Shown: one piece after another, positions 5,676-61,470 of the stretch
How positions within the stretch are numbered: the stretch's first letter is position 1
Layout: the number at the start of each line of letters is the position of its first letter
NCBI GenBank assembly: GCA_964016885.1
Contig: OZ024766.1
Coordinates: 16,120,001 to 16,184,000 of the forward strand
DNA: 64,000 nt
Origin: Eledone cirrhosa
Taxonomy: Eukaryota
Direction of reading: 5' to 3'
Translations under genes and position numbers: made by a program
Notes under the pieces: model-generated
Seen by the model: only the letters and a program-made list of their open reading frames with translations
Told to the model about the DNA's origin: nothing
Databases searched by the model: none

Positions 5676-7793
5676 ATGGAAAATATATTGAGTGAAAAGA
5701 AGATTAAATGTGAAACAATGTCTAAAGATATGGCTATTACAGAAGAGATGTCAAAGGATAGAGGAGAGAAGCCATATCACTGTGATGTCTGTGGTAAATC
5801 ATTCTCTGTTAGGAGTAAATTAACTAGTCACAAACGTACTCATACAGGAGAAAAGCAATACCACTGTGATATCTGTGGTAAATCATTCTTTGTTAATGGT
5901 AATTTAACAAGCCACAAACGTACACATACAGGAGAGAAGCCATACCACTGTGATATCTGTGGTAAATCATTCTCTCAAAGTAGTAATTTAACTAGCCACA
6001 TGCGTATACATACAGGTGACAAACCATATCACTGTGATATCTGTGGTAAATCATTCTCTCTAAGTAGTATATTAACTTGTCACATACGTACCCATACAGG
6101 AGACAAATCATATCACTGTGATATCTGTGGTAAATCATTCTCTGAAAGTAGTATATTAACTAACCACATGCATATACATATAGGTGAGAAGCCATATCGC
6201 TGTAATATCTGTGGTCAATCATTCTCACTAAGTGGTCACTTAACTAGCCACATACGTACCCATACAGGAGACAAGCCTTATAACTGTGATATCTGTGGTA
6301 AATCATTCTCTAAAAGTACTATATTAACTAACCACATGCATATCCATACAGGAGAGAAGCCATATCACTGTGATATCTGTGGTAAATCATTCTTTGTTAA
6401 TAGTAATTTAACTAGACACAAAAGTATACATACAGGTGAGAAGCCATATCACTGTGATATCTGTGGTAAATCATTCTCTCAAAGTGGTCACTTAAGTAGC
6501 CACAAACGTACCCATACAGGAGAGAAGCCATATAACTGTGATATCTGTGGTAAATCATTCTCTACAAGTACTATATTAACTAACCACATGCATATCCATA
6601 CAGGAGAGAAGCCATATCACTGTGATATCTGTGGTAAATCATTCTCTGAAAGTGGTACCTTAACTAGCCACAAATGTACCCATACAGGAGACAAGCCATA
6701 TCACTGTGATATCTGTGGTAAATCATTCTCTCGAAGAAGTTACTTAACTGAGCACTTACGTATCCATACAGGTGAGAAGCCATATCGCTGTGATATCTGT
6801 GGTAAATCATTCTCTCAAAGTAGTCCCTTAACTAGACACAAACGTATACATACAGTAGAGAAGCCAAATCACTGTGATATCTGTGGTAAATCATTCTCTC
6901 AAAGTAGTAATTTAACTAGCCACATGCGTATACATACAGGTGACAAACCATATCACTGTGATATCTGTGGTAAATCATTCTCTCTAAGTAGTATATTAAC
7001 TTGTCACATACGTACCCATACAGGAGACAAACCATATCGCTGTGATATCTGTGGTCAAACATTCTCTCTAAGTGGTCACTTAACTAGCCACGTACGTACC
7101 CATACAGGAGACAAGCCTTATAACTGTGATATCTGTGGTCAATCATTCTCTCTAAGTGGTCACTTAACTAGCCACGTACGTACCCATACAGGAGACAAGC
7201 CTTATAACTGTGATATCTGTGGTAAATCATTCTTTAATAATATTAGTTTAACTAGACATGAACGTACCCATTCAGGAGAGAAGCCATATCACTGTGATAT
7301 CTGTGGTAAATCATTCTTTGTTAATAGTAATTTAACTAGACACAAAAGTATACATACAGGTGAGAAGCCATATCACTGTGATATCTGTGGTAAATCATTC
7401 TCTCAAAGTGGTCACTTAACTAGCCACAAACGTACCCATACAGGAGAGAAGCCATATAACTGTGATATCTGTGGTAAATCATTCTCTAAAAGTAGTATAT
7501 TAACTAACCACATGCATATCCATACAGGAGAGAAGCCATATCACTGTGATATCTGTGGTAAATCATTCTCTGAAAGTGGTACCTTAACTAGCCACAAACG
7601 TACCCATACAGGAGACAAGCCATATCACTGTGATATCTGTGGTAAATCATTCTCTCGAAGAAGTTACTTAACTGAGCACTTACGTATCCATACAGGTGAG
7701 AAGCCATATCGCTGTGATATCTGTGGTAAATCATTCTCTCAATTTAGTAGTTTAACTAGACACAAATATACCCATACAGGTAAGAAACTATAA
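5676..7793 (+). CDS. Poly-C2H2 zinc-finger protein, gene 1 (705 aa, 24 fingers)
   Basis: Open ORF: 33-aa leader followed by 24 x 28-aa YxCxxCGKSFxxxxxLxxHxxxHTGEKP repeats. Confidence 0.95.
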
Positions 7794-8560
7794 CAAAGTC
7801 ATATCTCATTGTCTCAAAATTGTAAATTAATTAGACACAAATACATTCATATGAGTGAGAAGCCATACCACTGTGATATTGTGGAGAAATTATTCTCTTG
7901 TATTGCTACATTAACTACATACAAACATAAATATATACTGGAGAAAAGCCATATTACTGTGATATCTGTGAGAAATTGTTATCTATAAAAGCTAGCTTAA
8001 CTAGACACAAAGATATATATACAGGAGAGAAACCATATCACTGTGATATCTGTGGGAAATCATTCTCTGAAATAAGTCACTTCACTCAGCACTAACATTT
8101 AAAGAAAAGGAACCATATCATTGTGATATCTGCAGTAAATCATTCTCTAAATGTGGCTTCACTACACACTAACATATACAGGAGAGGAACCATATCACTG
8201 TGATGTCTGTGGTAAATCCTTCTCTAAATGTTTTGTTTTCTCTAGAAACTAACATACAGGAGAGGAACCATATCACTGTGATGTCTGTCGTAAATCATTC
8301 TCTAAATGTTGTGGCTTCACTAGACACTAACTTACACAGGAGAGGAACCATATCACTGTGATGTCTGTGATAAATCCTTCTCTAAATGTTGTGACTTCAC
8401 TAGACACAAACATATACAGGAGAGGAAGCATATCACTGTGATGTCTGTCGTAAATCATTCTCTAAATGTTGTGACTTCACTAGAAACTAACATATAAAGG
8501 AGAGGAACCATATCACTGTTGTCTGTGGCAAATCATTTTCTAAATGTTGTGGTACCAACA
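7794..8560 (+). pseudogene. Degenerate zinc-finger tail after the stop codon. Also at 22634-23240, 30760-31205, 50345-50870 and 61471-62070.
   Basis: Finger-like DNA with stops and frameshifts; ~80-bp period (agaggaa at 8261, 8341, 8421, 8501). Confidence 0.85.
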
Positions 8561-8652
8561 TAAGGTTACTTAATGCTACACAAACACAATCAGACAAGAT
8601 AAAAACCATGTCACTCACCCAAAATAGTGCCACCAATGTTGTTAATGTTTCG

Positions 8653-8658
8653 AATAAA
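8653..8658 (+). terminator. Candidate polyadenylation signal AATAAA (also 23335, 31305, 50967, 62170)
   Basis: Conserved AATAAA followed by T/GT-rich sequence after the dead-finger tail. Confidence 0.5.
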
Positions 8659-9121: not shown

Positions 9122-10425
9122 TATATATATATACATATGTATGAGTGTATATGTCAGTGTGTAGAAATTTCTGTCCATGAAAATGATTATCTTTATTTGT
9201 GTATATATATGTATGTGTATGTTTATATGTGTTCTTATATACATGTGTGCACATCTTGATATATTTTCAGTGTCTGTTCTAGTTCTCAGAGTACAAATCC
9301 CACAGGTAAAGTTGCTTCGATATTTTGAGGTCATTAAATGAAATACCAGTGAAATACTGGGGTGGTTAATTCCTCTTCTTTGTCATTGTCTGTTTGTCTA
9401 CTCTTCTCTTTCTCTGTATTTATATATATATATCCAAAATTAAGATATATTAAAATAAAATTAATCTAAATCAAATTATGGGAGTCATGCCAGAAAGACA
9501 TGCGCCATATCACCCGTAAAATAAGGTCCATGGAGCTTATTTTATGGGTGATATGGCGCATGTCTTTCTGGTATGACACCCATAATTTGATATAGATTAA
9601 TTTTGTTTTAATTTATCTTAATTTTTGATATATATAAATACGGCCTCTTAATTGTAGAGCTAACTCTGTTGAAAGGACCTGACTGCTGTTTCTAGTTGTC
9701 AATATCCCTATTCACGCAACTGGGATGAAGCTGGTATGATGTGTTACTGGTCAGTCGCTGATTTGAACTTGATGCGTAAACACAGATGGTTGGACTTTTT
9801 CCTGGTTGAGAATCCAAGATCTGGCTACTGTCGTTTACCAATCGATTATTTGGTGAAATATATTTCTTTAATGGAATATATACAAGGAAGATTACTCATT
9901 TTCTAAGGTATCTATTTTTGAAATTCTAGTTAAATTTATTTAGTTACCTACCTAGCTATGTGTGCTTACACACATTTACAAATTATCCCCTGTGATTGTT
10001 TCATATGTTTATTTATATGTCAATTTCTAGTTGATATATATATATAAATATAAATATATATATATATACGTGGAAAAGTAAAATATAGCAGAACAGACCG
10101 TTAAAAGATGTTTATTTAAAATAGCACCTATGTAATGAAGACATGACAAATTGTCCTCGCGCCCTCTCTATTTATAGAGAAAAGGTGAAGTTGGAAATAG
10201 CACGGAAAATATATTTTAGGGGTCTGTTTTTCTGTTATTTATCTTTTGATTCGTCAAAGTGACATTATTGAAAATATGGGAGGGACATCATCATTCATCA
10301 TCATTTCATTTCACGTCCGCTTTCTCCCTGCTTGCAAGGGTGGGACGGGAACTGATTCTGGCTTGATTTCTACAGATGGAAGCCCTTCCTAACGCCAACC
10401 TCATTTACAGTGAGTGCTGGGTGTT

Positions 10426-13400
10426 GTCATGTTGAATGTTTTTCAAGATGTTATGGTCGGCATATTTCTGGTCATCCACCAGTCAAGGTTTATTTTCATA
10501 CACAAACTTACGCAACACTTCAATATCATGGTTTGTCTCCTGAAAAACTGATTGTATTACCTCAATTTCTTCTGGCTCTGGCATCCTGGATTGCTATTCA
10601 TTGCTGGAATTCAATGGGACAGGTTGCACAGAGGTTGATTGTAAATCCTGGAGGTAGATTCCACATAAATATTGCTATAACATCTTTGGGCTGGGTGTAG
10701 ATAGTCGTCTGACATATTGTTTTTGTACTCCTGCCAGGGTAGATGAGATTTATTCCACATGCTGTGAGTATAGTAGCAAACAACTGTCTTATTTAACTGG
10801 CTACTCCAGTGTCTGCTCCTTCTAGTCTCTTCTTCCAATGTCAGTTGTCATACAGGAGTCCATGGCTGACTTATTTAACTGGCTACTCCAGTGACTGCTC
10901 CTTCTAGTCCCTTCTTCCAATGTCAGTTGTCATACAGGTGTCAATGGCTGTTATTTTACTGGCTACTCCAGTGACTGCTCCTTCTGGTCCCTTCTTCCAA
11001 TGATAGTTGTCATACAGGTGTCAATGGCTGTTATTTAACTGGCTACTGCAGTGACTGCTCCTTCTGGTCCCTTCTTCCAATGTCAGTTGTCATACAGGTG
11101 TCAATGGCTGTTATTTAACTGACTGCTCCTTCTAGTCCCTTTTTCCAATGTCAGTTGTCATACAGGTGTCCATGGCTGTCTTATTTAACTGGCTACTCCA
11201 GTGACTGCCCCTTCTAGTCCCTTCTTCCAATGTCAGTTGTCATACAGGTGTCCATGGCTGTCTTATTTAACTGGCTACTCCAGTGACTGCCCCTTCTAGT
11301 CCCTTCTTCCAATGTCAGTTGTCATACAGGTGTCCATGGCTGTCTTATTTAACTGGCTACTCCAGTGACTGCCCCTTCTAGTCCCTTCTTCCAATGTCAG
11401 TTGTCATACAGGAGTCCATGGCTGTCTTATTTAACTGGCTACTCCAGTGACTGCCCCTTCTAGTCCCTTCTTCCAATGTCAGTTGTCATACAGGTGTCCA
11501 TGGCTGTCTTATTTAACTGGCTACTCCAGTGACTGCTCCTTCTCGTCTCTCTTTCCAATATCAGTTGTCTTACAGGAGTCCATGGCTGTCTTATTTAACT
11601 GGCTACTCCAGTGACTGCTCCTGCTAGTCTCTTCTTCCAATGTCAGTTGTCATACAGGAGTCCATGGCTGTCTTATTTAACTGGCTACTCCAGTGACTGC
11701 TCCTTCTAGTCCCTTCTTCCAATGTCAGTTGTCATACAGGTGTCCATGACTGTCTTATTTAACTGGATACTCCAGTGATTGCCCCATCTAGTCTCTTCTT
11801 CCAATGTCAGTTGACATACAGGTGTCCATGGCTGTCTTATTTAACTGGCTACTCCAGTGACTGCTCCCTCTAGTCCCTTCTTCCAATGTCAGTTGTCATA
11901 CAGGAGTCCATGACTGTCTTATTTAACTGGCTACTCCAGTGACTGCTCCTTCTAGTCCCTTCTTCCAATATCAGTTGTCATACAGAAGTCCATGGCTGTC
12001 TTATTTAACTGGCTACTCCAGTGACTGCTCCTTCTAGTCCCTTCTTCCAATGTCAGTTGTCATACAGGTGTCCATGGCTGTCTTATTTAACTGGCTACTC
12101 CAGTGACTGCTACTTCTAGTCTCTTCTTCCAATATCAGTTGTCATACAGGAGTCCATAGCTGTCTTATTTAACTGGCTACTCAAGTGACTGCTCCTTCTA
12201 GTCCATTCTTCCAATGTCAGTTGTCATACAGGAGTCCATGGTTGTCTTATTTAACTGGCTACTCAAGTGACTGCTCCTTCTAGTCCATTCTTCCAATGTC
12301 AGTTGTCATACAGGAGTCCATGGTTGTCTTATTTAACTGGCTACTCAAGTGACTGCTCCTTCCAGTCCATTCTTCCAACGTCAGTTGTCATACAGGAGTC
12401 GATGGCTGTCTTATTTAACTGGCTACTCAAGTGACTGCTCCTTCTAGTCCATTCTTCCAATGTCAGTTGTCATACAGGAGTCCATGGTTGTCTTATTTAA
12501 CTGACTACTCCAGTGACTGCTCCTTTTAGTCCCTTCTTCCAATGTCAGTTGTCATACAGGTGTCCATGGCTGTCTTATTTAACTGGCTACTCCAGTGACT
12601 GCTCCTTCTAGTCTCTTCTTCTAATGTCAGTTGTCATACAGGTGTCCATGGCTGTCTTATTTAACTGGCTACTCCAGTGACTGCTCCTTCTAGTCCCTTC
12701 TTCCAATGTCAGTTGTCATACAGGTGTCCATGGCTGACTTATTTAACTGGCTACTCCAGTGACTGCTCCTTCTAGTCCCTTCTTCCAATGTCAGTTGTCA
12801 TACAGGTGTCCATGGCTGTCTTATTGAAATGGCTACTCCAGTGACTGCTCCTTCTAGTCCCTTCTTCCAATGTCAATTGTCATACAGGTGTCCATGGCTG
12901 TCTTATTTAACTGGCTACTCCAGTGACTGCTCCTTCTAGTCCCTTCTTCCAATGTCAGTTGTCATACAGGTGTCCATGGCTGTCTTATTTAACTGGCTAC
13001 TCCAGTGACTGCTCCTTCTAGTCCCTTCTTCCAATGTCAGTTGTCATACAGGTGTACATGGCTGACTTATTTAACTGGCTACTCCAGTGATTGCCCCTTC
13101 TAGTCTCTTCTTCCAATGTCAGTTATACAGGTGTCCATGGCTGTCTTATTTAACTGGCTACTCCTGTGACTGCTCCTTCTAGTCTCTTCTTCCAATGTCA
13201 GTTGTCATACAGGAGTCCATGGCTGTCTTATTTAACTGGCTACTCCAGTGATTTCCCCTTCTAGTCCCTTCTTCCAATGTCAGTTGTCATACAGGAGTCC
13301 ATGGCTGTCTTATTTAACTGGCTACTTCAGTGACTGCTCCTTCTAGTCCCTTCTTCCAATGTCAGTTGTCATACAGGAGTCCATGTCTGTCTTATTTAAC

Positions 13401-16400
13401 TGGCTACTCCAGTGACTGCTCCTTCTAGTCCCTTCTTCCAATGTTAGTTGTCATACAGGTGTCCATGGCTGTCTTATTTAACTGGCTACTCCAGTGACTG
13501 CTCCTTTTAGTCCCTTCTTCCAATGTCAGTTGTCATACAGGTGTCCATGGCTGTCTTATTTAACTGGTTACTCCAGTGGCTGCTCCTTCTAGTCCCTTCT
13601 TCCAATGTCAGTTGTCATACAGGAGTCCATGTCTGTCTTATTTAACTGGCTACTCCAGTGACTGCTCCTTCTAGTCCCTTCTTCCAATGTTAGTTGTCAT
13701 ACAGGTGTCCATGGCTGTCTTATTTAACTGGCTACTCCAGTGACTGCTCCTTTTAGTCCCTTCTTCCAATGTCAGTTGTCATACAGGTGTCCATGGCTGT
13801 CTTATTTAACTGGCTACTCCAGTGACTGCCCCTTCTAGTCTCTTCTTCCAACGTCAGTTGTCATACAGGTGTCCATGTCTGTCTTATTTAACTGGCTACT
13901 CCTGTGACTGCTCCTTCTAGTCTCTTCTTCCAATGTCAGTTATCATACAGGAGTCCATGGCTGTCTTATTTAACTGGCCACTCCAGTGACTGCTCCTTCT
14001 AGTCTCTTCTTCCAATGTCAGTTATCATACAGGAGTCCATGGCTGTCTTATTTAACTGGCCACTCCAGTGACTGCTCCTTCTAGTCTCTTCTTCCAATGT
14101 CAGTTGTCGTACAGGAGTCCATGGCTGTCTTATTTAACTGGCTACTCCAGTGATTTCCCCTTCTAGTCCCTTCTTCCAATGTCAGTTGTCATACAGGAGT
14201 CCATGGCTGTCTTATTTAACTGGCTACTGCAGTGACTGCTCCTTCTAGTCTCTTCTTCCAATATCAGTTGTCATACAGGTGTCCATGGCTGTCTTATTTA
14301 ACTGGCTACTCCAGTGACTGCTCCTTCTAGTCCCTTCTTCCAATGTCAGTTGTTATACAGGTGTCCATGGCTGTCTTATTTAACTGGCTACTCCAGTGAT
14401 TTCCCCTTCTAGTCCCTTCTTCCAATGTCAGTTGTCATACTGGAGTCCATGGCTGTCTTATTTAACTGGCTACTGCAGTGACTGCTCCTTCTAGTCTCTT
14501 CTTCCAATATCAGTTGTCATACAGGTGTCCATGGCTGTCTTATTTAACTGGCTACTCCAATGACTGCTCCTTCTAGTCCCTTCTTCCAATGTCAGTTGTC
14601 ATACAGGTGTCCATGGCTGTCTTATTTAACTGGCTACTGCAGTGACTGCTCCTTCTTCTCTCTTCTTCCAATGTCAGTTGTCATACAGGAGTCCATGGCT
14701 GTCTTATTTAACTGGCTACTCCATTGATTTACCCTTCTAGTCCCTTCTTCCAATGTCAGTTGTTATACAGGTGTCCATGGCTGTCTTATTTAACTGGCTA
14801 CTCCAGTGATTTCCCCTTCTAGTCCCTTCTTCCAATGTCAGTTGTCATACAGGAGTCCATGGCTGTCTTATTTAACTGGCTACTCCAGTGATTTCCCCTT
14901 CTAGTCACTTCTTCCAATGTCAGTTCTCATACAGGTGTCCATGGCTGTCTTATTTAACTGGCTACTCCAGTGACTGCTCCTTCTAGTCCCTTCTTCCAAT
15001 GTCAGTTGTCATACAGGTGTCCATGGCTGTCTTATTTAACTGGCTACTCCAGTGACTGCTCCTTCTAGTCTCTTCTTCTAATGTCAGTTGTCATACAGGT
15101 GTCCATGGCTGTCTTATTTAACTGACTGTTCCTTCTAGTCCCTTCTTCCAATGTCAGTTGTCATACAGGTGTCCATGGCTGACTTATTTAACTGGCTACT
15201 CCAGTGACTGCTCCTTCTAGTCCCTTCTTCCAATGTTAGTTGTCATACCGGTGTCCATGGCTGTCTTATTTAACTGGCTACTCCAGTGACTGCTCCTTCT
15301 AGTCTCTTCTTCCAATGTCAGTTGTCATACAGGTGTACATGGCTGACTTATTTAACTGGCTACTCCAGTGATTGCCCCTTCTAGTCTCTTCTTCCAATGT
15401 CAGTTATCATACAGGAGTCCATGGCTGTCTTATTTAACTGGCTACTCAAGTGACTGCTCCTTCTAGTCCATTCTTCCAATGTCAGTTGTCATACAGGTGT
15501 CCATGGCTGTCTTATTTAACTGGCTACTCCAATGACTGCTCCTTCTAGTCCCTTCTTCCAATGTCAGTTGTCATACAGGTGTCCATGGCTGTCTTATTTA
15601 ACTGGCTACTGCAGTGACTGCTCCTTCTACTCTCTTCTTCCAATGTCAGTTGTCATACAGGAGTCCATGGCTGTCTTATTTAACTGGCTACTCCATTGAT
15701 TTCCCCTTCTAGTCTCTTCTTCCAATGTCAGTTGTCATACAGGTGTGCATGGCTGACTTATTTAACTGGCTACTCCAGTGATTGCCCCTTCTAGTCTCTT
15801 CTTCCAATGTCAGTTGTCATACAGGAGTCCATGGCTGTCTTATTTAACTGGCTACTGCAGTGACTGCTCCTTCTAGTCTCTTCTTCCAATATCAGTTGTC
15901 ATACAGGTGTCCATGGCTGTCTTATTTAACTGGCTACTCCAGTGACTGCTCCTTCTAGTCCCTTCTTCCAATGTCAGTTGTTATACAGGTGTCCATGGCT
16001 GTCTTATTTAACTGGCTACTCCAGTGATTTCCCCTTCTAGTCCCTTCTTCCAATGTCAGTTGTCATACTGGAGTCCATGGCTGTCTTATTTAACTGGCTA
16101 CTGCAGTGACTGCTCCTTCTAGTCTCTTCTTCCAATATCAGTTGTCATACAGGTGTCCATGGCTGTCTTATTTAACTGGCTACTCCAATGACTGCTCCTT
16201 CTAGTCCCTTCTTCCAATGTCAGTTGTCATACAGGTGTCCATGGCTGTCTTATTTAACTGGCTACTGCAGTGACTGCTCCTTCTTCTCTCTTCTTCCAAT
16301 GTCAGTTGTCATACAGGAGTCCATGGCTGTCTTATTTAACTGGCTACTCCATTGATTTCCCCTTCTAGTCCCTTCTTCCAATGTCAGTTGTTATACAGGT

Positions 16401-18022
16401 GTCCATGGCTGTCTTATTTAACTGGCTACTCCAGTGATTTCCCCTTCTAGTCCCTTCTTCCAATGTCAGTTGTCATACAGGAGTCCATGGCTGTCTTATT
16501 TAACTGGCTACTCCAGTGATTTCCCCTTCTAGTCACTTCTTCCAATGTCAGTTCTCATACAGGTGTCCATGGCTGTCTTATTTAACTGGCTACTCCAGTG
16601 ACTGCTCCTTCTAGTCCCTTCTTCCAATGTCAGTTGTCATACAGGTGTCCATGGCTGTCTTATTTAACTGGCTACTCCAGTGACTGCTCCTTCTAGTCTC
16701 TTCTTCTAATGTCAGTTGTCATACAGGTGTCCATGGCTGTCTTATTTAACTGACTGCTCCTTCTAGTCCCTTCTTCCAATGTCAGTTGTCATACAGGTGT
16801 CCATGGCTGACTTATTTAACTGGCTACTCCAGTGACTGCTCCTTCTAGTCCCTTCTTCCAATGTTAGTTGTCATACCGGTGTCCATGGCTGTCTTATTTA
16901 ACTGGCTACTCCAGTGACTGCTCCTTCTAGTCTCTTCTTCCAATGTCAGTTGTCATACAGGTGTACATGGCTGACTTATTTAACTGGCTACTCCAGTGAT
17001 TGCCCCTTCTAGTCTCTTCTTCCAATGTCAGTTATCATACAGGAGTCCATGGCTGTCTTATTTAACTGGCTACTCAAGTGACTGCTCCTTCTAGTCCATT
17101 CTTCCAATGTCAGTTGTCATACAGGTGTCCATGGCTGTCTTATTTAACTGGCTACTCCAATGACTGCTCCTTCTAGTCCCTTCTTCCAATGTCAGTTGTC
17201 ATACAGGTGTCCATGGCTGTCTTATTTAACTGGCTACTGCAGTGACTGCTCCTTCTACTCTCTTCTTCCAATGTCAGTTGTCATACAGGAGTCCATGGCT
17301 GTCTTATTTAACTGGCTACTCCATTGATTTCCCCTTCTAGTCCCTTCTTCCAATGTCAGTTGTCATACAGGTGTCCATGGCTGTCTTATTTAACTGGCTA
17401 CTCCAGTGATTTCCACTTCTAGTCCCTTCTTCCAATGTCAGTTGTCATACAGGAGTCCATGGCTGTCTTATTTAACTGGCTACTCCAGTGATTTCCCCTT
17501 CTAGTCACTTCTTCCAATGTCAGTTGTCATACAGGTGTCCATGGCTGTCTTATTTAACTGGCTACTCCAGTGACTTCCCCTTCTAGTCTCTTCTTCCAAT
17601 GTCAATTGCCCCATGCATGAGTTGTTGTTCTTTAGATGCTTCTTGGTATGTGCTGCACTCTTCCACCAAATCACCTGAGATCCTCAAATAACGTTGGTCC
17701 TTGAACAATATGCAGAAGTGACTGTAAATAAAAACTCTCTCTGTTGTTGGGGTGGTCATTGTAAACATGCCCAATAGCATCACTTGCCTTGACTTCATCA
17801 CCTTCCACTAAATGACCCTGCTTCCTTTGATTCCAAGTCTTACAATTGGTCCAGGTGTAGTATTTTGGGATGTCAGCATATAGGAGGGATCGAACAAATT
17901 CTTTATTCTGGCAGAGTTTCAAAAAAGCAGTTAGAGTAGTGTCAGGTGGTACTGGTGTCAACTAATGAGCAGTGGTTTCAGTGAAGTACACACTCTTTCC
18001 ATTTTCTATATGTATAGAGATA
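10426..18022 (-). mobile_element. Helitron RepHel remnant, unit 2, split by a ~6.8-kb satellite
   Basis: Same peptides (ORFs 10598-10838 and 17671-17961). Confidence 0.85.
10784..17607. repeat. 82-bp satellite, ~83 copies
   Basis: Uninterrupted tandem monomers. Confidence 0.98.
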
Positions 18023-21019: not shown

Positions 21020-22633
21020 ATGGAAAATATATTGAGTGAAAAGAAGATTAAATGTGAAACAATGTCTAAAGATATGGCTATTACAGAAGAGATGTCAAAG
21101 GATAGAGGAGAGAAGCCATATCACTGTGATGTCTGTGGTAAATCATTCTCTGTTAGGAGTAAATTAACTAGTCACAAACGTACCCATACAGGAGAGAAGC
21201 CATATAACTGTGATATCTGTGATAAATCATTCTCTGAAAGTGGTACCTTAACTATACACAAACGTATACATACAGTAGAGAAGTCATATCACTGTGATAT
21301 CTGTGGTAAATCATTCTTTGTTAATGGTAATTTAACAAGACACAAACGTACACATACAGGAGAGAAGCCATACCACTGTGATATCTGTGGTAAATCATTC
21401 TCTCGAAGTAGTCACTTAACTGGCCACAAACGGACACATACGGGTGAGAAGCCATATCGCTGTTTTATCTGTGGTAAATCATTCTCTCTAAGTAGTATAT
21501 TAACTTTTCACGTACGTACCCATACAGGTGACAAACCATATCACTGTGATATCTGTGGTAAATCATTCTCTCGAAATAATATATTAACTTGTCACATACG
21601 TACCCATACAGGAGACAAGCCATATCACTGTGATATCTGTGGTAAATCATTCTCTCGAAGTAGTAAATTAACTAACCACATGCATATACATATAGGTGAG
21701 AAACCATATCGCTGTGATATTTGTGGTAAATCATTCTCTCGAAATAATACATTAACTTGTCACATACGTACCCATACAGGAGACAAGCCATATCACTGTG
21801 ATATCTGTGGTAAATCATTCTCTCTAAGTAGTATATTAACTTTTCACGTATGTACCCATACAGGTGACAAACCATATCACTGTGATATCTGTGGTAAATC
21901 ATTCTCTCGAAATAATATATTAACTTGTCACATACGTACCCATACAGGAGACAAGCCATATCACTGTGATATCTGTGGTAAATCATTCTCTCAAAGTGGT
22001 CACTTAACTAGCCACAAACGTACCCATACAGTAGAGAAACCATATCGCTGTGATATCTGTGGTAAATCATTCTTTGTTAATAGTAAATTAACTAGACACA
22101 AACGTGTACATACAGTAGACAAGCCATATCACTATGATATCTGTGGTAAATCATTCTCTGATAGTGGTAGCTTAACTAGCCACAAACGTATACATATAAG
22201 AGAGAAGCCATATCACTGTGATATCTGTGGTAAATCATTCTCTCAAAGTCCTGGCTTAACTAGGCACAAACGTATACATACAGGAGACAAGCCATATCAC
22301 TGTGATATCTGTGGTAAATCATTCTCTCAAAGTCCTGGCTTAACTAGGCACAAACGTATACATACAGGAGAGAAGCCATATCACTGTGATATCTGTGGTA
22401 AATCATTCTCTGAAAGTGGTAACTTAACTAGCCACAAACGTATACATACAGGAGAGAAGCCATATCACTGTGATATCTGTGGTAAATCATTCTCTGAAAG
22501 TGGTAACTTAACTAGCCACAAACGTATACATACAGGTGAGAAGCCACATCACTGTGATATCTGTGGTAAATCATTCTCTCAATTAAGTAGTTTAACTAGA
22601 CACAGATATACCCATACAGGTAAGAAACCATAA
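21020..22633 (+). CDS. Poly-C2H2 zinc-finger protein, gene 2 (537 aa, 18 fingers; finger 13 has Cys->Tyr)
   Basis: Same leader as gene 1 plus 18 x 28-aa repeats; YHYDICG in finger 13. Confidence 0.95.
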
Positions 22634-25125: not shown

Positions 25126-26276
25126 TCATGTTGAATATTTTTCATGATGTTGTGGTAGGCATATTTCTGGTCATCCACCAGTCAAGGTTTATTTTCATCC
25201 ACAAACTTACGCAACACTTCAATATCATGGTTTGTCTCCTGAAAAACTGATTGTATTACCTCAATTTCTTCTGGCTCTGGCATCCTGCATTGCTGTAATT
25301 CAATGGGACAGGTTGCACAGAGCTTGATTGTAAATCTTGGAGGTAGATTCCACATAAATATTGCTATAACGTCTTTGGGCTACGTGTAGATAGTCGTCTG
25401 ACATATTGTTTTTGTGCTCCTGCCAGGGACGATGAGATTTATTCCACATGCTGTGAGTATAGTAGCAAACAACTGTCTTAGTTAACTGGCTACTCCAGTG
25501 ACTGCTCCTTCTAGTCCCTTCTTCCAATGTCAGTTGTCATACAGGTGTCCATGGCTGTCTTATTTAACTGGCTACTCCAGTGACTGCTCCTTTTAGTCCC
25601 TTCTTCCAATGTCAGTTGCAATACAGGAGTCCATGGCTGTCTTATTTAACTGGCTACTCCAGTGACTGCTCCTTCTAGTCTCTTCTTCCAATGTCAATTG
25701 TCATACAGGAGTCCATGGCTGTCTTATTTAACTGGCTACTCCAGTGACTGCTCCTTCTAGTCTCTTCTTCCAATCTCAGTTGTCATACAGAAGTCCATGG
25801 CTGTCTTATTTAACTGGCTACTCCAGTGACTGCTCCTTCTAGTCTCTTCTTCCAATATCAATTGCCATGCAGAATTTGATGTTCTTTAGATGCTTCTTGT
25901 TATTTGCTGCACTCTGCCACCAAATCACCTGAGATCCTCAAATGATGTTGGTCCTTGAACAATATGCAGAAGTGGCTGTAAATAAAAACTCTCTCTGTTG
26001 TTGGGGTGGTCATTGTAAACATGCCCAATAGCATCACTTGTCTTGACTTCATCACCTTCCACTAAATGACCCTGCTTCCTTTGATTCCAAGTCTTACAAT
26101 TGGTCCAGGTGTAGTATTTTGGGATGTCAGCATATAGGAGGGATCGAACAAATTCTTTATTCTGGCAGTGTTTCAAAAAAGCAGTTAGAGTAGTGTCAGG
26201 TGGTGCTGGTGTCAACTGATGAGCAGTGGTTTCAGTGAAGTACACACTCTGTCCATTTTCTATATGTATAGAGATA
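25126..26276 (-). mobile_element. Helitron RepHel remnant, unit 3
   Basis: ORFs 25300-25527 and 25925-26290. Confidence 0.85.
25473..25864. repeat. 82-bp satellite, ~5 copies
   Basis: Same monomer. Confidence 0.97.
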
Positions 26277-29200
26277 AGGATGAAAAGCAAAGTTAATCCC
26301 TCAGAGGTTAGCTTTGCCTTTCATCCCTACGGGGTCGGTAAAATAAAGTACCAGTAATGTACTGGGGTATTGCTGGCCTTGTGCCTAATGTAGAAACAAT
26401 TATTACAGGGTCGATAAAATATAGTACCAGTAATGCACTGGCGTATTTACTGGCCTTGTGCCTAAAGTAGAAACAATTATTACGGGGTCGATAAAATAAT
26501 GTACCAGTAATACACTAGGGTAATTGCTGGCCTTGTGCCAAAAGTAGAAACAATTATCACATTTCTTTTTAATAAATCACATCACTATAGAATTAAATAC
26601 GACTGGAACTGTGTGTCAAGGTATTAAATTATGTCAGGGACTTTTAACGTTTGACACCGGTACGAGAGTTGAAACATTCGCTAAGACACCGAGTACTTGC
26701 TGTCTTCATTATAACTTTAATTAATCTAATTATATCTTGTGTAACAATTATATATATATACACACACACAATTTTAATTCCTCGACATCAGTCTTGCACT
26801 GTCATATATATTCTTACTTTACAATTGTGTCTACTAAGAGTTCCATTACAATCTGTAGTAGTAAAACTACTATTTCACCAGAATATCTGCTATCAGTCAT
26901 TTATAGACAATATATATATTTTAGACCACATATCCACCTAATATATATATATTTCCTATCAAATCTGTAGCTAAAGACATAAAGTCAGCCTCACTACTTC
27001 ATTCTGACAAGATATCAATTTATGACTAAAGATGAAGAAGATACACCAACGTTAATGTCGTGAAATAAAGCTGATCACATTGAAACTTCTAATTTGATAA
27101 CAAAGAGATTATTTCTTTGGTTGTTTAGTAACAACTAACAACACAATACATTAATTATATGCGAAGGAGGTAAGTTGACAAAGATTTACTTAATGTCTAT
27201 ATTAATGTGTGTAAATAATATAATTATGTGACCCCTACAACGCACCAGTAATTAACCAGATTCCACTGTTCCATGTGATATAAAATATATTGTTATGACT
27301 GTCTTTATTATTTAAATTACCTCCGTCTATTTAATTATCTAGTTCACTACCTTACATTATAAAATATAGTTTATATTTAGCTGTACCTTGTTATTGTTTT
27401 AAGTAAATTAAATTTATATTTATTATTTAAATTACCCCGTCAATTTAATTATCTTGTTCACTACCTTACATTATAAAATATAGTTTATATTTAGCTGTAC
27501 CTTGTTATTGTTTTAAGTAAATTAAAGCTATATTTATTATTTAAATTACCCCCGTCAATTTAATTATATGGTTCACTACCTTACATTATAAAATATAGTT
27601 TATATTTAGCTGTACCTTGTCATTGCTTTAAGTAAATTAAAGATATATTTATTATTTAAATTACCTCCGTCTATTTAATTATGTGGTTCACTACCTTACA
27701 TTATAAAATATAGTTTATATTTAGCTGTACCTTGTTATTGCTTTAAGTAAATTAATATTTTGTCTGTTTTAGTCTAAATCTCTTACAATTTAATTAACTT
27801 CATCTACTTATGGTTGAACATTACTTTATTGTGGGTTTCATTTTATTATAATTATGTCTGATTAGCCAGCCAAGTAGGGGTTGAGTATCTGTATTTCAGG
27901 GAACTGCTTTGATGGTGAAGGGACATCTGTTGGTGTGGGATCTCGGTGGCTGTACATAATAAGGTTCTAATACTCTAAAGAGCTAGCTGAATAACCGTCT
28001 GATACATGTCTTGTATAGAGGATCATAAAGCCATGTATAGAAGAGCAGTCAGCAATGTCAGGATTAACATTCATTATAGTGAAGTGGCAGTATCGGTAGA
28101 GAGTCGGACACCATGCTTTGAGGCACAGAGTTACGTCCCTTTATGATCTGAGTTCAAATCCCGCCGAGGTTAACTTTGCCTTACATCCATACGGGGTCGA
28201 TAAAATAAAGTACCAGTAATGTACTGGGTAATTGCTGGCCTTGTGTTTAAAATAGAAACAATTATAGTGAATAATTTGGAGTGTAGTCTGGTGTCCACCA
28301 GGGCTCTGTTCTTAGCCCTCACTTAGTTATTATCGTCCTGCAGCCTATAACAGAGATGTTTAAGACTGGCTGCCCATGGGAACTCCTGTATGCTCAGCAG
28401 GTCCTGAAGAATGCGGTCATGTGCATTTTCCAGGTCTATAAAACGATAATATATACCTCTTAGCAATACTCCCACGATTTCTCAAAGACCTGCCACAGTG
28501 TGATTATTTGGTGGGTTATGTTGCACCCAGGGAGCAAACAGCACTGTCCATCAGCTAGCTTGGACTCGCTACATCACTTTGCCAGAAACTTTGCATATAC
28601 TTTACCAGGGAGTCATAACAAGGTGATCCCTCTCTATTTGGAACAATCTCTCGTGTGTCCCTTTTTATAAATTGGGATTATCACTCCCGATTGCCATTGC
28701 TTGAGTGCCATTTCAGAGACCCAGGCCATCTGACACACATGAGTCGGTCACATTTGAGCTCTTTAATTGCTCTTGTGACCTCAGCCTCCGAGAGATTAGT
28801 CACCGCTATCAGATTCACCTCATGTACATCCGAAGATGCTGTTGTGATCGGGTTTGGGAGATCAGCAAAGTATTCTCTCCACCTCATGAGGATCCATCTC
28901 TCTGAAGAGAAAAGAACCCCAGATGCACTCATGGTTGCAGGTGTGGAGAAAGATTTCTTGTAACTAATTAAAAAGTAAAATAATTTGATTTTTCAATAAA
29001 AAGTTTCCAGGGTTTATAGATGTAAAATTTCCACTGTTAAATCTATCTCTGCTTCTTAAGTATACTCTATTATTTCATACTGTTTCTTTTTCATTTCAGA
29101 ATATCAGATGACATTGGGATAAATTATTTTTTTCAATCTTGGATACATCACCTCTATTTATCATCATTTGAAGATTAAAACTTTTTAAACAGAACTTATA

Positions 29201-29481: not shown

Positions 29482-30759
29482 ATGGAAAATAAATTGAGGG
29501 AAAAGAAGATTAAATGTGAAACAATGTCTAAAGATATGGCTATTACAGAAGAGATGTCAAAGGATAGAGGAGAGAAGCCATATCACTGTGATGTTTGTGG
29601 TAAATCATTCTCTCGAAGTAGTAATTTAACTAGCCACATGCGTATACATACAGGTGAGAAGCCATATCACTGTGATATCTGTGGTAAATCATTCTCTGAA
29701 AGTGGTAACTTAACTAGCCACATGCGTATACATACAGGTGAGAAGCCATATCACTGTGATATCTGTGGTAAATCATTCTTTCTTAATAGTAAATTAACTA
29801 GCCACAAACGTACACATACAGGAGAGAAGCCATATCACTGTGATATCTGTGGTAAATCATTCTCTCTAAGTAGTATATTAACTTGTCACATCCGTACCCA
29901 TACAGGTGACAAGCAATATCACTGTGATATCTGTGGTAAATCATTCTCTGAAAGTGGTAACTTAACTAGACACAAGCGTATACATACAGGAGAGAAGCCA
30001 TATCACTGTGATATCTGTGGTAAATCATTCTCTTTTAGTAGTAATATAAATTCTCACATACGTACTCATACAGGAGAGAAGCCATATCACTGTGATATCT
30101 GTGGTAAATCATTCTTTAATAATATTAGTTTAACTAGACACGAACGTACCCATTCAGGAGAGAAGCCATATCACTGTGATATCTGTGGTAAATCATTCTT
30201 TGTTAATAGTAATTTAACTAGACACAAAAGTATACATACAGGAGAGAAGCCATATCACTGTGATATCTGTGGTAAATCATTCTCTGAAAGTGGTACCTTA
30301 ACTAGCCACAAACGTATACATACAGGAGACAAGCCATATCACTGTGATATCTGTGGTAAATCATTCTCTCGAAGAAGTTACTTAACTGAGCACTTACGTA
30401 TCCATACAGGTGAGAAGCCATATCACTGTGATATCTGTAGTAAATCATTCTCTGATAGTGGTACCTTAACTAGCCACATACGTATACATACAGGAGAGAA
30501 GCCATATCACTGTGATATCTGTAGTAAATCATTCTCTGAAATCTGTACCTTAACTAGACACAAACGTATCCATACAGGAGAGAAGCCACATCACTGTGAT
30601 ATCTGTGGTAAATCATTCTCTGAAAGTGGTACCTTAACTAGACACAAACGTATCCATACAGGAGAGAAGCCATACCACTGTGATATCTGTGGTATATCAT
30701 TCTCTCAATTAAGTAGTTTAACTAAACACAAATATACCCATACAGGTAAGAAACCATAA
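29482..30759 (+). CDS. Poly-C2H2 zinc-finger protein, gene 3 (425 aa, 14 fingers)
   Basis: Homologous leader plus 14 intact C2H2 repeats. Confidence 0.95.
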
Positions 30760-48400: not shown

Positions 48401-48520
48401 AAATATTTTTTAGGAATATAATATAAAAAATATTAAAGAATAACATCTGTAAATTCTGCCACGGGTAGAAGAATTATTCTGGAAAATAAATTGAGTGAAA
48501 AGAAGATTAAATGTGAAACA

Positions 48521-50344
48521 ATGTCTAAAGATATGGCTATTACAGAAGAGATGTCAAAGGATAGAGGAGAGAAGCCATATCACTGTGATGTTTGTGGTAA
48601 ATCATTCTCTGAAAGTAGTAAATTAACTAGTCACAAACGTATACATACAGTAGAGAAGCCATATCACTGTGATATCTGTGGTAAATCATTCTTTGTTAAT
48701 GGTAATTTAACAAGCCACAAACGTACACATACAGTAGAGAAACCATATCACTGTGATGTCTGTGGTAAATCATTCTTTGTTAATAGTAAATTAACTAGCC
48801 ACATGCGTATACATACAGGTGAGAAGCCATATCACTGTGATATCTGTGGTGAATCATTCTCTCAAAGTAGTACCTTAACTAGCCACAAACGTACACATAC
48901 AGGAGAGAAGCCATATCACTGTGATATCTGTGGTAAATCATTCTCTGAAAGTGGTAACTTAACTAGCCACAAACGTACACATGCAGGAGAGAAGCCATAT
49001 CACTGTGATATCTGTGGTAAATCATTCTTTGTTAATGGTAATTTAAATAGCCACATGCGTATACATACAGGTGAGAAGCCATATCACTGTGATATCTGTG
49101 GTAAATCATTCTCTCGAAGTAGTATATTAACTAGCCACATGCGTATACATAGAGGTGAGAAACCATATCACTGTGATATCTGTGGTAAATCATTCTCTGA
49201 AAGTGGTCACTTAACTAGCCACAAACGTATACATACAAGAGAGAAGCCATATCACTGTGATATCTGTGGTAAATCATATTCTCACAGTAATGCCTTAACT
49301 AGACACAAACGTATACATACAGGAGAGAAGCCATATCACTGTGATATCTGTGGTAAATCATTCTCTGAAAGTGGTAACTTAACTAGCCACAAACGTATAC
49401 ATACAGGAGAGATGCCATATCACTGTGATATCTGTTGTAAATCATATTCTCAGAGTAATGCCTTAACAAGCCACAAACGTATACATACAGGAGACAAGCC
49501 ATATCACTGTGATATCTGTGGTCAATCATTCTCTCGAAGTGGTACCTTAACTAGCCACAAACGTATACATACAGGAGAGAAGCCATACCACTGTGATATC
49601 TGTGGTAAATCATTCTATGATAGTAGTACCTTAACTAGCCACAAACGTATACATACAGGAGAGAAGCCATATCACTGTGATATCTGTGGTAAATCATTCT
49701 TTGAAAATAGTAAATTAACTATACACAAACGTACACATACGGGAGAGAAGCCATATCACTGTGATATCTGTGGTAAATCATTCTCTCAAAGTCCTGCCTT
49801 AACTAGCCACAAACGTATCCATACAGGAGACAAGCCATATCGCTGTGATATCTGTGGTAAATCATTCTCTCGAAGAAGTTACTTAACTGAGCACTTACGT
49901 ATCCAGACAGGAGACGAGCCATATCACTGTGATATCTGTGGTAAATCATTCTCTCAAAGTTCTGGCTTAACTAGGCACAAACGTATACATACAGGAGAGA
50001 AGCCATATCACTGTGATATCTGTGGTAAATCATTCTTTGAAAATAGTAAATTAACTAGTCACAAACGTACACATACGGGAGAGAAGCCATATCACTGTGA
50101 TATCTGTGGTAAATCATTCTCTGAAAGTAGTACCTTAACTAGCCACAAACGTATCCATACAGGAGAGAAGCCATATCGCTGTGATATCTGTGGTAAATCA
50201 TTCTCTCAAAGTAGTAACTTAACTAGCCACAAACTTATACATACAGGAGACAAGCCATACCACTGTGATATTTGTGGTAAATCATTCTGTCAATTAAGTA
50301 GTTTAACTAAACACAAATATACCCATACAGGTAAGAAACCATAA
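48521..50344 (+). CDS. Poly-C2H2 zinc-finger protein, gene 4 (21 fingers). The paralogous start ATG is CTG at 48479; first in-frame ATG is 48521.
   Basis: gaattattCTGgaaaat versus gaattattATGgaaaat in the paralogs; ORF open through 21 repeats; finger 16 has His->Gln (HLRIQ). Confidence 0.88.
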
Positions 50345-52397: not shown

Positions 52398-52683
52398 CAG
52401 TTCAATTCTCAGACCGGGTGATGTGTTGTTTCCTTGAGCAAGACACTTTATTTCACATTGCTCCAGTTTACTCAGCTGTAGAAATGAAATGATAGGGACT
52501 GGGGTCCCTATCATTCCACTTTAAAGTGGTAGTGGAGGTGCCACGGCAAAAAAGCACCCAGCACTCACTGTAAATGAGGTTGGTGTTAGGAAGGGCATCC
52601 AGCTGTAGTATTCAAGCCAGAATCAGTTCCCGTCTCACCCTTGCAAGCAGGGAAAAATGGACGTAAAATGAAATGATGATGAT
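52398..52683 (+). mobile_element. Unit-5-specific SINE-like insertion within (TA)n
   Basis: gttcaattc B-box-like start, ccttgagcaagacactt core and (GAT)n tail; absent from the other units. Confidence 0.7.
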
Positions 52684-52766
52684 ATATATATATATATACA
52701 CGTGGAAAAGTAAAATATAGCAGAACAGACCGTTAAAAGATGTTTATTTAAAATAGCAACTATGTA

Positions 52767-53352
52767 CATTTCACCTGGATGGGCTTCTCAAGGGTATAAA
52801 TAACTAAAAAGTGTTCCTTACATGGCCCAGAATGTGTTTTTAGAGATAAGTTCACGTCAGAGTTCATTCTACGCGAAAAAGCGTGTTTTGATTTTGCAGT
52901 AGGTCAAGGGAGGTAACTCTAGCTGGTGTGAGGCCAGTCTTTCCCGGAAAATTTTTTTATCTGTTAAAAGATATGGTTACAACCCTACCATTGTCGATAC
53001 GCACAGGGTCAGGTATGCAACGTTTGTTTGCTGCACCTGCCCGCCTGGGTCACTTGAAGCCATGTCTGGGATACATGGTTAGTTTCATGATTTTTTTTGC
53101 AGCACCTGCTATATATATATATATGAGCGAGACACGGTCACCCGACCTAACTTGCTTCTACATACGACAAACCCGTCCAACCCATGCTAGCATGGAAGAT
53201 AGATAATAATCGATGATGATGATATCTAGGGATTGTAACATTACCACAACAGAAGTCTGACAAGCTTTTGATTCCAGAGTCAGGCTAGATCAATACAGAT
53301 CAAACCTTGAGCTGATCGATAGCAAAACGTGCTTCACTGCTCAATAAATGTA
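52767..53352. other. ~590-bp repeat-derived block present only in units 5 and 6 (63691 to window end)
   Basis: Interrupts ctatgta|atgaagacatg; atgta occurs at both edges; contains another (GAT)n SINE-like tail near 53170-53223. Confidence 0.6.
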
Positions 53353-53645
53353 ATGAAGACATGACAAATTGTCCTCTCGCTCCCTCTCTCTATATATAGA
53401 GAAAAGGTGAAGTTAGAAATAGCACGGAAAATATATTTTAAGGCCTGTTTTATGTTATATATCTTTTGATTCGTTAAAGTGACCCTATTGAAAAAATGGG
53501 AGAGACATCATCATTCATCATCATTTCATTTAACGTCCACATTTTCCCTGCTTGCAAGGGTGGTACGGGAACTGATTGTGGCTTGATTTCTAAAGATGGA
53601 TGCCCTTCCTAACGCCAACCTCATTTACAGTGAGTGCTGGGTGCT

Positions 53646-59300: not shown

Positions 59301-59604
59301 TAAAACTTTTTAAACAGAACTTATATAACACTGTTTATACAAATCTATCAGAATTACTGTGATATATTTCCTCAGAACTGAGTTTAAAGACAAAATTTCT
59401 TTTCTTCACTGTGTGGTGTATATATGAGAGATATATTTTGTATTTTAACTCAGCTTCAATGACAAAGAAGTTTGCATCATCTTCAGGTATTAACTGAGAT
59501 CATAATTGAGGGAAATATAACAGAAATAATATTTTTTAGGAATATAATATAAAAAATATTAAAGAATAACATCTGTAAATTCTGCCAAGGGAAGAAGAAT
59601 TATT

Positions 59605-61470
59605 ATGGAAAATAAATTGAGTGAAAAGAAGATTAAATGTGAAACAATGACTAAAGATATGGCTATTACAGAAGAGATGTCAAAGGATAGAGGAGAGAAG
59701 CCATATCTCTGTGATGTCTGTGGTAAATCATTCTCGGTTAGTAGTAAATTAACTAGTCACAAACGTATACATACAGTAGAGAAGCCATATCACTGTGATA
59801 TCTGTGGTAAATCATTCTTTGTTAATGGTAATTTAACAAGCCACAAACGTACACATACAGGAGAGAAGCCATACCACTGTGATATCTGTGGTAAATCATT
59901 CTCTGAAAGTGGTAACTTAACTAGACACAAACGTATACATACAGTAGAGAAGCCATATCACTGTGATATCTGTGGTAAATCATTCTTTGTTAATGGTAAT
60001 TTAACAAGCCACAAACGTACACATACAGGAGAGAAGCCATATCACTGTGATATCTGTGGTAAATCATTCTTTGTTAATGGTAATTTAACTAGCCACATGC
60101 GTATACATACAGTTGAGAAGCCATATCACTGTGATATCTGTGGTAAATCATTCTTTGTTAATAGTAAATTAACTAGACACAAACGTACACATACAGGAGA
60201 GAAGCCATATCACTGTGATATCTGTGGTAAATCATTCTCTGGAAGTAGTAATTTAACTAGCCACGTGCGTATACATATAGGTGACAAACCATATCACTGT
60301 GATATCTGTGGTAAATCATTCTCTCTAAGTAGTATATTAACTTGTCACATCCGTACCCATACAGGTGATAAGCCATATCACTGTGATGTCTGTGGTAAAT
60401 CATTCTCTCGAAGTGGTACCTTAACTAGCCACAAACGTACCCATACAGGAGACAAACCATATCACTGTGATATCTGTGGTAAATCATTCTCTCGAAGTAG
60501 TCATTTAACTACACACAAACATATACATACAGGAGAGAAGCCATATCACTGTGATATCTGTGGTAAATCATTCTCTTTTAGTAGTAATTTAACTTCTCAC
60601 ATACGTACTCATACAGGAGACAAGCCTTATCACTGTGATATCTGTGGTAAATCATTCTCTGAAAGTGGTAACTTAACTAGTCACAAAAGTATACATACAG
60701 GAGAGAAGCCATATAACTGTGATATCTGTGGTAAATCATTCTCTAAAAGTAGTATATTAACTAACCACATGCTTATACATATAGGTGAGAAACCATATCG
60801 CTGTGATATCTGTGGTCAATCATTCTCTCTAAGTAGTATATTAACTTGTCACATCCGTACCCATACAGGTGACAAGCCATATCACTGTGATATCTGTGGT
60901 AAATCATTCTCTGAAAGTGGTAACTTAACTAGACACAGACGTATACATACAGGAGAGAGGCCATATCACTGTGATATCTGTGGTAAATCATTCTCTTTTA
61001 GTAGTAACATAAATTCTCACATACGTACTCATACAGGAGAGAAGCCTTATCACTGTGATATCTGTGGTAAATCATTCTTTAATAATTTTAGTTTAACTAG
61101 ACACGAACGTACCCATTCAGGAGAGAAGCCATATCACTGTGATATCTGTGGTAAATCATTCTTTGTTAATAGTAATTTAACTAGACACAAAAGTATACAT
61201 ACAGGAGAGAAGCCATATCACTGTCATATCCGTGGTAAATCATTCTCTCGAAGAAGTTACTTAACTGAGCACTTACGTACCCATACAGGTGAGAAGCGAT
61301 ATCGCTGTGATATCTGTGGTAAATCGTTCTCTCAAAGTAGTCCCTTAACTCAACACTTACGTATCCATACAGGTGAGAAGCCACATCACTGTGATATCTG
61401 TGGTGAATCATTCTCTCAATTAAGTAGTTTAACTAAACACAAATATACCCATACAGGTAAGAAACCATAA
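59605..61470 (+). CDS. Poly-C2H2 zinc-finger protein, gene 5 (621 aa, 21 fingers; finger 19 has Cys->Arg)
   Basis: Leader plus 21 repeats; CHIRGK in finger 19. Confidence 0.95.
   Translation: MENKLSEKKIKCETMTKDMAITEEMSKDRGEKPYLCDVCGKSFSVSSKLTSHKRIHTVEKPYHCDICGKSFFVNGNLTSHKRTHTGEKPYHCDICGKSFSESGNLTRHKRIHTVEKPYHCDICGKSFFVNGNLTSHKRTHTGEKPYHCDICGKSFFVNGNLTSHMRIHTVEKPYHCDICGKSFFVNSKLTRHKRTHTGEKPYHCDICGKSFSGSSNLTSHVRIHIGDKPYHCDICGKSFSLSSILTCHIRTHTGDKPYHCDVCGKSFSRSGTLTSHKRTHTGDKPYHCDICGKSFSRSSHLTTHKHIHTGEKPYHCDICGKSFSFSSNLTSHIRTHTGDKPYHCDICGKSFSESGNLTSHKSIHTGEKPYNCDICGKSFSKSSILTNHMLIHIGEKPYRCDICGQSFSLSSILTCHIRTHTGDKPYHCDICGKSFSESGNLTRHRRIHTGERPYHCDICGKSFSFSSNINSHIRTHTGEKPYHCDICGKSFFNNFSLTRHERTHSGEKPYHCDICGKSFFVNSNLTRHKSIHTGEKPYHCHIRGKSFSRRSYLTEHLRTHTGEKRYRCDICGKSFSQSSPLTQHLRIHTGEKPHHCDICGESFSQLSSLTKHKYTHTGKKP

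Follow-up and report, generated by a model that had tools for sequence, protein, structure and literature searches.

The window analysed here is a 64,000-nucleotide stretch of the Eledone cirrhosa genome (contig OZ024766.1, hereafter C27, positions 16120001-16184000). It contains five C2H2 zinc-finger genes which are not a self-contained set and form part of a tandem cluster of 95 genes. We propose, with a probability of about 0.7, that the cluster is young and composed of ~97%-identical ~10-kb units, and that unequal crossover and gene conversion in the germline reshuffle the fingers of these units into arrays predicted to bind new DNA. The proposal is built on mosaic arrays, on flanking sequences whose ancestry switches together with the arrays, on the position of recent junctions and on the distribution of diversity along the finger. 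The cluster is a real case of concerted and recombinational zinc-finger array evolution across a young multigene cluster. Genes are numbered g1 to g95 in their order in the cluster; window genes 1 to 5 correspond to g31 to g35.

A six-frame scan of the window places the finger arrays on the forward strand only, in five open reading frames (ORFs). The coding region of gene 1 (5676..7793) comprises a 28-amino-acid leader, 24 fingers (5760-7775) and a stop. Gene 2 (21020..22633) consists of the leader and 18 fingers (21104-22615), gene 3 (29482..30759) of the leader and 14 fingers (29566-30741), and gene 5 (59605..61470) of the leader and 21 fingers (59689-61452); gene 4 (48479..50344) also carries 21 fingers (48563-50326). 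Cutting in register yields 98 in-frame 84-bp units, 88 of them distinct, and reproduces the 24, 18, 14, 21 and 21 fingers counted by the first-pass annotation. The arrays are of the Krüppel type, with at least five C-x2-C-x12-H-x3-H fingers and TGEKPY-type linkers, and all four zinc ligands are kept in 95 of the 98 fingers. The leader and the last finger are as constant as that annotation had described, and all nine helix types which it named as a common set occur in two to four of the five genes. The flanks, said to be almost constant, are so where they can be aligned (92.6-98.0% identity upstream, 85.3-96.5% downstream), but the length of a satellite differs by kilobases. Each repeat was also said to hold a near-invariant 40-bp block with little synonymous variation. 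The block is exact in 32/98 fingers and within two differences in 85/98, and its synonymous variation is low; however, this property is not limited to the block, as the third positions of several helix codons are equally invariant.

The fingers do not group by gene and position. The nearest finger lies in another gene in 57 of 98 cases and in the same gene in 26, with 15 ties, and the mean distance is 12.7 nucleotides both within and between window genes. A partner at no more than two differences in another window gene exists for 37 fingers, at the same array position in five of these 37. Sixteen of the 58 distinct helices are common to more than one window gene and are carried by 51 of the 98 fingers, while 42 helices are private to a single gene within the window. 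Finger order is not freely permuted, since the window genes share four adjacent helix pairs (mean 0.94, maximum 5, in 2000 shuffles).

Around the window, 1.264 Mb of C27 was examined and contains 95 finger-only C2H2 genes with leader and array within 1.08 Mb, together with one further array without leader match. With a further cluster on contig C14, the family belongs to the large genomic C2H2 clusters. One leader motif has 79 exact occurrences, always on C27 between 15.76 and 16.82 Mb. Intact genes number 76 and disrupted ones 19, and 77 distinct arrays are present. The flanks of cluster genes differ by a median of 2.8% upstream and 3.7% downstream, with some copies separated by as little as 0.0-0.1%, and the assembly has no gaps inside the cluster. 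Because multi-gene blocks are duplicated within the cluster, close twins of window genes 1 and 2 exist: the array of gene 1 is near-identical to those of g24 and g49, and that of gene 2 is identical to those of g8, g25 and g50, g30 having one finger fewer. The finger order of gene 5 recurs in g5, g10, g11 and g43. The genes are spaced by a median of 10 kb, 52 on the forward strand followed by 43 on the reverse strand. This single flip of orientation, tail to tail, lies at C27 16.39-16.40 Mb, and some arrays are found on both arms (g3/g7 and g62).

For the analysis of exchange, each array was painted, that is rebuilt from all others at a cost of 1 per mismatch and 3 per jump. Gene 4 is painted as six pieces from five donors, with five jumps and 10 mismatches in 1764 bp: 48563-49082 from g38, 49083-49240 from g1, 49241-49676 from g13, 49677-49915 from g76, 49916-49975 from g8 and 49976-50326 again from g1, at offsets of 0, -4, +2, +1, -3 and -9, respectively. 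The best single donor is g13; its upstream flank is only 0.1% away, yet eight jumps and 34 mismatches are needed. Across the cluster, a single donor without jump suffices for 44 of 75 painted arrays, so that the majority of genes run collinear with some close twin. It is between lineages 2-4% apart that the reshuffled appearance of the window builds up.

The gain from multiple donors was dropped as proof of exchange between paralogs after tree-like simulations, and flank ancestry serves as the independent test. Among 13 flank triples, we use only the four chimeras predicted from their arrays (g34, g79, g9 and g51); g13 and g74 have misaligned downstream flanks, and the others had been chosen after seeing the flanks. 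In three of the four, flank ancestry switches as the arrays predict. Support for the two parents is 35:1 upstream and 2:24 downstream for g34 (p = 8e-14), 23:8 and 3:27 for g79 (p = 3e-7), and 15:4 and 1:39 for g9 (p = 1e-9). Gene 3 and g9 are identical over the first 691 array bases, after which g9 switches to the array of gene 4. The junction in g79 creates a hybrid helix, ESGSLTS, from ESGSLTR and ESGNLTS. Rearranged arrays recur in several copies (genes 6/15, 13/37 and 76/78/93). Mosaics and flank switching thus support the swapping of fingers within and between paralogs which the first-pass annotation had suggested; its freely moving finger cassettes are not borne out, as fingers tend to move as multi-finger blocks.

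The same annotation saw the invariant scaffold as the platform of recombination, and this part of its claim survives only in a weaker form. Intervals of recent junctions include the core in 13/19 cases under strict definition (32% simulated) and in 21/30 under relaxed definition (40% with simulated uniform breakpoints). Under a per-event null, 7.9 junctions are expected in the core; with one reciprocal duplicate removed, 12/18 lie there (p 0.003-0.03, for events which are not fully independent). Recent junctions are enriched in the block, but a special role of the block as platform is not supported. Linkage across the core is no lower at 28-60 bp (0.046 vs 0.052, p=0.24), four of the 30 junctions fall inside helices, the rest of the unit is equally discordant, and the 40-mer itself occurs exactly 697 times genome-wide, with 339 copies in the examined region and about 358 outside. 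Long-term linkage decays smoothly, within about 20 bp. Distances between flank segments correlate with rho of 0.08-0.20 across non-finger parts and 0.13 across the array, compared with 0.46 for adjacent unique segments. Since these correlations are low all along the unit, recombination has the whole ~10-kb unit as its substrate, with the 84-bp period converting exchanges into finger rearrangements. Two narrower ideas found no support: the array as a hotspot within the unit, given equal flank discordance across non-finger parts, and the helix moving with its downstream linker as one cassette (0.78 vs 0.76).

The pace of array change was estimated from 66 clean genes. Of their 47 spanning-tree edges, the 41 which link close sisters were kept and six longer ones left out. 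The 41 edges carry 21 register jumps and 104 substitutions in 55 kb. With repeats removed, 28 of 90 substitutions fall in contact codons, and 27 of these 28 lead to alleles already common in the library. As 26 non-synonymous contact changes are seen where about six are expected from de novo mutation, a class which assembly errors possibly inflate, recombination appears to outpace point mutation several-fold in this sequence comparison. This estimate bears out the earlier expectation that rearrangement generates contact changes faster than de novo mutation. The copy number of the 82-bp satellite differs within 16 of 20 sister-gene groups; the arrays are more stable than this neutral neighbour.

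Diversity was computed on 427 unique fingers from 58 distinct intact arrays, a comparison of helix and scaffold which the first-pass annotation had put forward as a check. Against a homogeneous background, the contact positions stand out as diverse. Non-synonymous diversity (piN) at positions -1, +2, +3 and +6 is 0.468, compared with a synonymous diversity (piS) of 0.137 at other codons, a 3.4-fold ratio whose bootstrap interval of 3.2-3.7 is too narrow since the fingers are related. Within contact codons alone piN/piS is 1.2, where codons hit several times inflate piS. Common contact alleles are non-synonymous to synonymous in a ratio of 27:4, compared with 16:12 for rare ones (p=0.018). Zinc-ligand residues are changed in 6/1708 cells, neighbouring core residues in 121/2135. 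Synonymous codons deviate from the consensus in 0.9% of cases in the core and 1.0% in the fixed helix and tail codons, compared with 11.8% in the linker; by reasoning, CpG avoidance would account for just two Cys codons among the invariant third positions. The diversity pattern points to probable selection which preserves the zinc ligands and promotes variety at the contact residues.

From these elements a mechanism can be sketched. The near-identical units offer long homology for mispairing, as the flank ancestry scrambled along the whole unit shows. The 84-bp period permits out-of-register resolution, through which blocks of one to several fingers are duplicated, deleted or imported, as the mosaics show. 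Junctions form preferentially in the invariant Cys-Cys-Phe block, but some fall in the helix and give rise to hybrid helices. Selection then likely retains zinc ligands and favours contact-residue variety, with point mutation as the ultimate source of new residues.

Several results weigh against this picture. Painting from several donors is not diagnostic by itself: in simulations of tree-like descent with indels inside the arrays, gains of at least 20 arise in 0, 1 and 4 of 49 genes, compared with 4/49 observed. The same simulations produce 78-141 helices (154 observed), with comparable gains at high indel rates. The flanks of g51 do not switch as predicted from its array. Junction bias is weaker under the per-event null (42%), where 12/18 corresponds to p=0.03. 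Arrays are identical on 17 of the 41 sister edges, so that array turnover is modest, and edges without jumps show no significant excess of contact changes (8/36, p=0.13). Among common alleles, the ratio of non-synonymous to synonymous changes shows no significant difference between contact and non-contact codons (p=0.22). Lastly, the whole analysis is based on one genome assembly; short contigs and RAD reads do not resolve to single members among the 95 paralogs.

Other explanations have to be weighed against the same data. The arrays might be a coding minisatellite in a recombination-prone field of segmental duplications, rearranged as a neutral by-product with little functional effect. Non-coding satellites do change faster (78, 99, 80 and 75 copies among four genes with identical arrays), the whole unit recombines, one gene in five (19/95) is disrupted, and recent core changes (17 non-synonymous, 4 synonymous) are near the site ratio. 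Nevertheless, the strong conservation of zinc ligands, the excess of non-synonymous diversity in contact codons and the existence of spliced contigs weigh against neutrality, as do frames of up to 2 kb which stay intact in 76/95 genes though the post-stop repeats are out of frame; we consider this explanation unlikely. Simple birth-and-death, in which whole-gene duplication is followed only by intra-array duplication, deletion and point mutation, allows no exchange between paralogs. It conflicts with the flank switches of g34, g79 and g9 in the array-predicted direction, with flank segments which lack one common tree and with the 34 mismatches and eight jumps which separate g34 from its 0.1% sister. 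As the sole process it is disfavoured and in our view quite improbable, even though jump-free painting describes 44/75 arrays and a library of similar size arises in simulation; as a contributor, birth-and-death is certainly involved.

A further proposal concerns the scaffold only and is compatible with paralog exchange: a constraint at the DNA or RNA level, such as a protein or small-RNA target which marks finger genes, could fix the invariant block. The genome-wide abundance of the exact 40-mer agrees with it, as does the fact that the core synonymous codons of six other loci are 2-12% off the cluster consensus while identity in their leader exon is about 78-81%. Six non-synonymous alleles but no synonymous one are common in the core, and the non-coding post-stop repeats keep the core best (10.6% mismatch vs 33% in the helix part). 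According to PMC5363842, mouse KZFP genes are bound by KAP1 at the end which codes for the fingers. Yet the same pattern is predicted by repeated conversion in the longest identical tract combined with AT-rich codon bias, and helix third positions are equally invariant, which leaves the constraint conceivable, though doubtful. Programmed or somatic diversification, a dedicated high-rate rearrangement of fingers in tissues or gametes, would be suggested by the resemblance of constant first and last fingers and scaffold to a cassette system. We regard it as extremely improbable, as no signal sequence or fixed junction is seen, breakpoints are scattered along the repeat, the arrays of many sister copies are identical and linkage decays smoothly. 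Finally, false joins in a repetitive region could yield both duplicates and mosaics; some copies are only 0.0-0.1% apart and none of the short contigs compared with the cluster spans a whole gene. Such an assembly artefact is very improbable, given that copies with identical arrays (up to four) differ in satellite length, that rearranged arrays recur in several copies and that the cluster is free of gaps.

If germline exchange among paralogs is the correct reading, the cluster would, by analogy, likely function as a renewable set of predicted repeat- or transposon-binding proteins. The rapid gain of specificity by tandem zinc-finger families is an unsettled problem, pursued mainly in mammals, whose paralogs have diverged too far to be followed. 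In this cluster, dozens of paralogs less than 1% apart still record individual events, which opens junctions, block sizes and hybrid helices to mapping. More speculatively, and with clear reservations, octopod genomes in general may hold several independent, cluster-private finger libraries on one genome-wide scaffold to which junctions are steered, which would be a multigene, PRDM9-like adaptive recognition of repeats evolved without KRAB; recombination among about 100 paralogs would give different arrays to different individuals, and a conserved leader would tie each new specificity to SUMO-dependent silencing.

That leader carries the motif KIKCE (for instance within 5676..5759, forward strand) and is repeated in each window gene. 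IKCE or VKCE is present in 95/95 cluster leaders, and KIKCE is invariant in the aligned leaders from C8, C9, C12 and C14. The motif presumably fits the SUMO consensus; it is possibly a candidate SUMO site which recruits silencing, and would be a candidate effector motif for the large, unexplained cephalopod C2H2 expansion. In gene 4, CTG replaces the first ATG and the next ATG is at 48521, so translation may start downstream of the KIKCE-type motif. A 24-nt piece of the leader is also found exactly on C9, C10, C18, C25, C26, C28 and at C27 19.5-20.0 Mb. A protein search with the leader region gave one match, to an unrelated finger protein. The whole-protein search returned generic, mostly vertebrate ZNFs among 8000 scored candidates, and the Atlas protein search generic clusters; none of the protein searches gave a cephalopod homologue. 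KRAB, SSXRD, SCAN, BTB and SET are absent among the best 25 Pfam families per protein and in 14 upstream ORFs of gene 3, and none of 14 PR-domain matches lies inside the cluster.

Each unit comprises a non-coding exon spliced to one large exon with the 5′ untranslated region, the leader, the array, the stop and, behind it, degenerate finger repeats. The leader is preceded by a stop codon in the same frame. The intron upstream of gene 3 (27169..29100, forward strand; donor after 27169, acceptor before 29100) is placed from the genome sequence and spliced contigs of run X4, three of which run from the end of the upstream exon directly into the acceptor at 29100. Equivalent sites on the same strand are 3243/5177, 18838/20642, 46403/48097 and 57411/59108. 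Run X4 is taken as RNA-like solely from its spliced junction. As the exact exon end in the X4 contigs matches six cluster genes outside the window, the contigs are evidence for the family, not for the five window genes, and suggest that this zinc-finger family is transcribed. The degenerate, out-of-frame post-stop repeats of 77-86 bp occupy 7794..8551 behind gene 1 and about 22634-23234, 30760-31198, 50345-50861 and 61471-62068 behind the others (all forward strand). In g16, g27, g41, g60, g66 and g85, deletions fuse the coding array to these repeats and the usual last finger is lost.

The 82-bp satellite forms 84 copies upstream of gene 2 (10784..17608), with further tracts at 1383-1946 (7 copies), 25473-25872 (5), 33441-45030 (141, with partial unit duplications) and 54001-55959 (24). 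It is an amplified piece of the continuation of a broken Helitron RepHel fragment, which is recognised by homology at 25799..26275 (reverse strand) and again at 1873-2349, and its number ranges from 0 to about 308 copies per unit (groups counted). The broken gene is carried in each unit (in the window at 1383-2349 and 25440-26275, reverse strand). An Atlas match to DNase II for the intron ORF was dropped, as homology points to Helitron RepHel. Within the long satellite before gene 4, the upstream part of the unit is partially duplicated, with the unit start motif at 32096, 35955 and 41468; a region of partial duplication also spans 51700-54000. Each unit opens with a long inverted-repeat element of MITE-like look (24-225, 9433-9630 and equivalents). 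The intron of gene 3 holds remnants resembling the reverse transcriptase of long interspersed nuclear elements (LINEs) at 28287-28463 (forward strand; weak RVT_1 match, E 0.019) and 28681-28992 (reverse strand).

A sister cluster with the same leader type (KIKCE) and reshuffled arrays lies on C14 at 8.95-9.07 Mb (140 kb examined). Two of its 51 helices are shared with the 171 of C27. Several C14 arrays contain short or frameshifted units. Elsewhere in the genome, hemocyanin genes appear as three runs of seven domain matches on C1 (173.7-173.9 Mb) and as an inverted pair on C26 (21.9-22.0 Mb). These domains mark a mollusc, and runs of seven agree with an octopod.

The surprise is limited, since PRDM9-type turnover, young KZFP clusters and cephalopod ZNF clusters have each been described before. 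A link between C2H2 genes and 70-90 bp repeats was reportedly drawn in the 2015 octopus genome paper. In literature searched without most subscription journals or supplements, no account of finger-level exchange in cephalopod ZNFs, of a KIKCE leader or of a Helitron-derived satellite came up. Coleoid genomes likewise contain clustered C2H2 genes, and gene conversion was suggested for their protocadherin clusters; squid C2H2 genes reportedly lack phylogenetic subclusters, as stated in PMC9068888, whereas the cluster described here is a single, very young subfamily whose helix vocabulary is its own. Cyprinid FiNZ-ZNF genes are also KRAB-less, lineage-expanded and tandem, have a short conserved N-terminus and show positive selection at contact residues, and octopus ZNF motifs are predicted to be enriched in transposons, as stated in PMC10547256. 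In contrast, the leader differs and the origins are independent.

Young mouse KRAB-ZFP clusters on Chr4 share with the Eledone cluster the segmental duplication of multi-gene blocks, common fingerprint arrays and the duplication, deletion and block repetition of fingers (PMC5363842; PMC12575710); the Chr4 expansion comprises shared and strain-specific fingerprint arrays (PMC12575710). Unlike these, the cephalopod cluster has no KRAB exon and a single coding exon, and its shared homology lies in the gene unit as such, accompanied by remnants of Helitrons and LINEs in place of endogenous retroviruses. The accessible portions of the mouse accounts do not map finger-level junctions between paralogs. 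Parallels with PRDM9 are an 84-bp coding repeat, a homogenised background, diversity at contact residues and template switches which generate hybrid fingers (PMC8600002; PMC5519329). The PRDM9-type diversity share P, however, is intermediate here (0.35-0.39, cluster median 0.37, for fingers 84-86% identical) when set against Table 1 of PMC5519329, where most intact PRDM9 arrays reach 0.43-1.0 and three rows 0.33-0.35. PRDM9 also possesses KRAB, SSXRD and PR/SET domains and exchanges fingers among alleles of one gene, not among about 95 paralogs. The way in which the cluster works resembles that of PRDM9 arrays and of the young KZFP clusters of mouse, but with no KRAB or SET domain it belongs to neither group.

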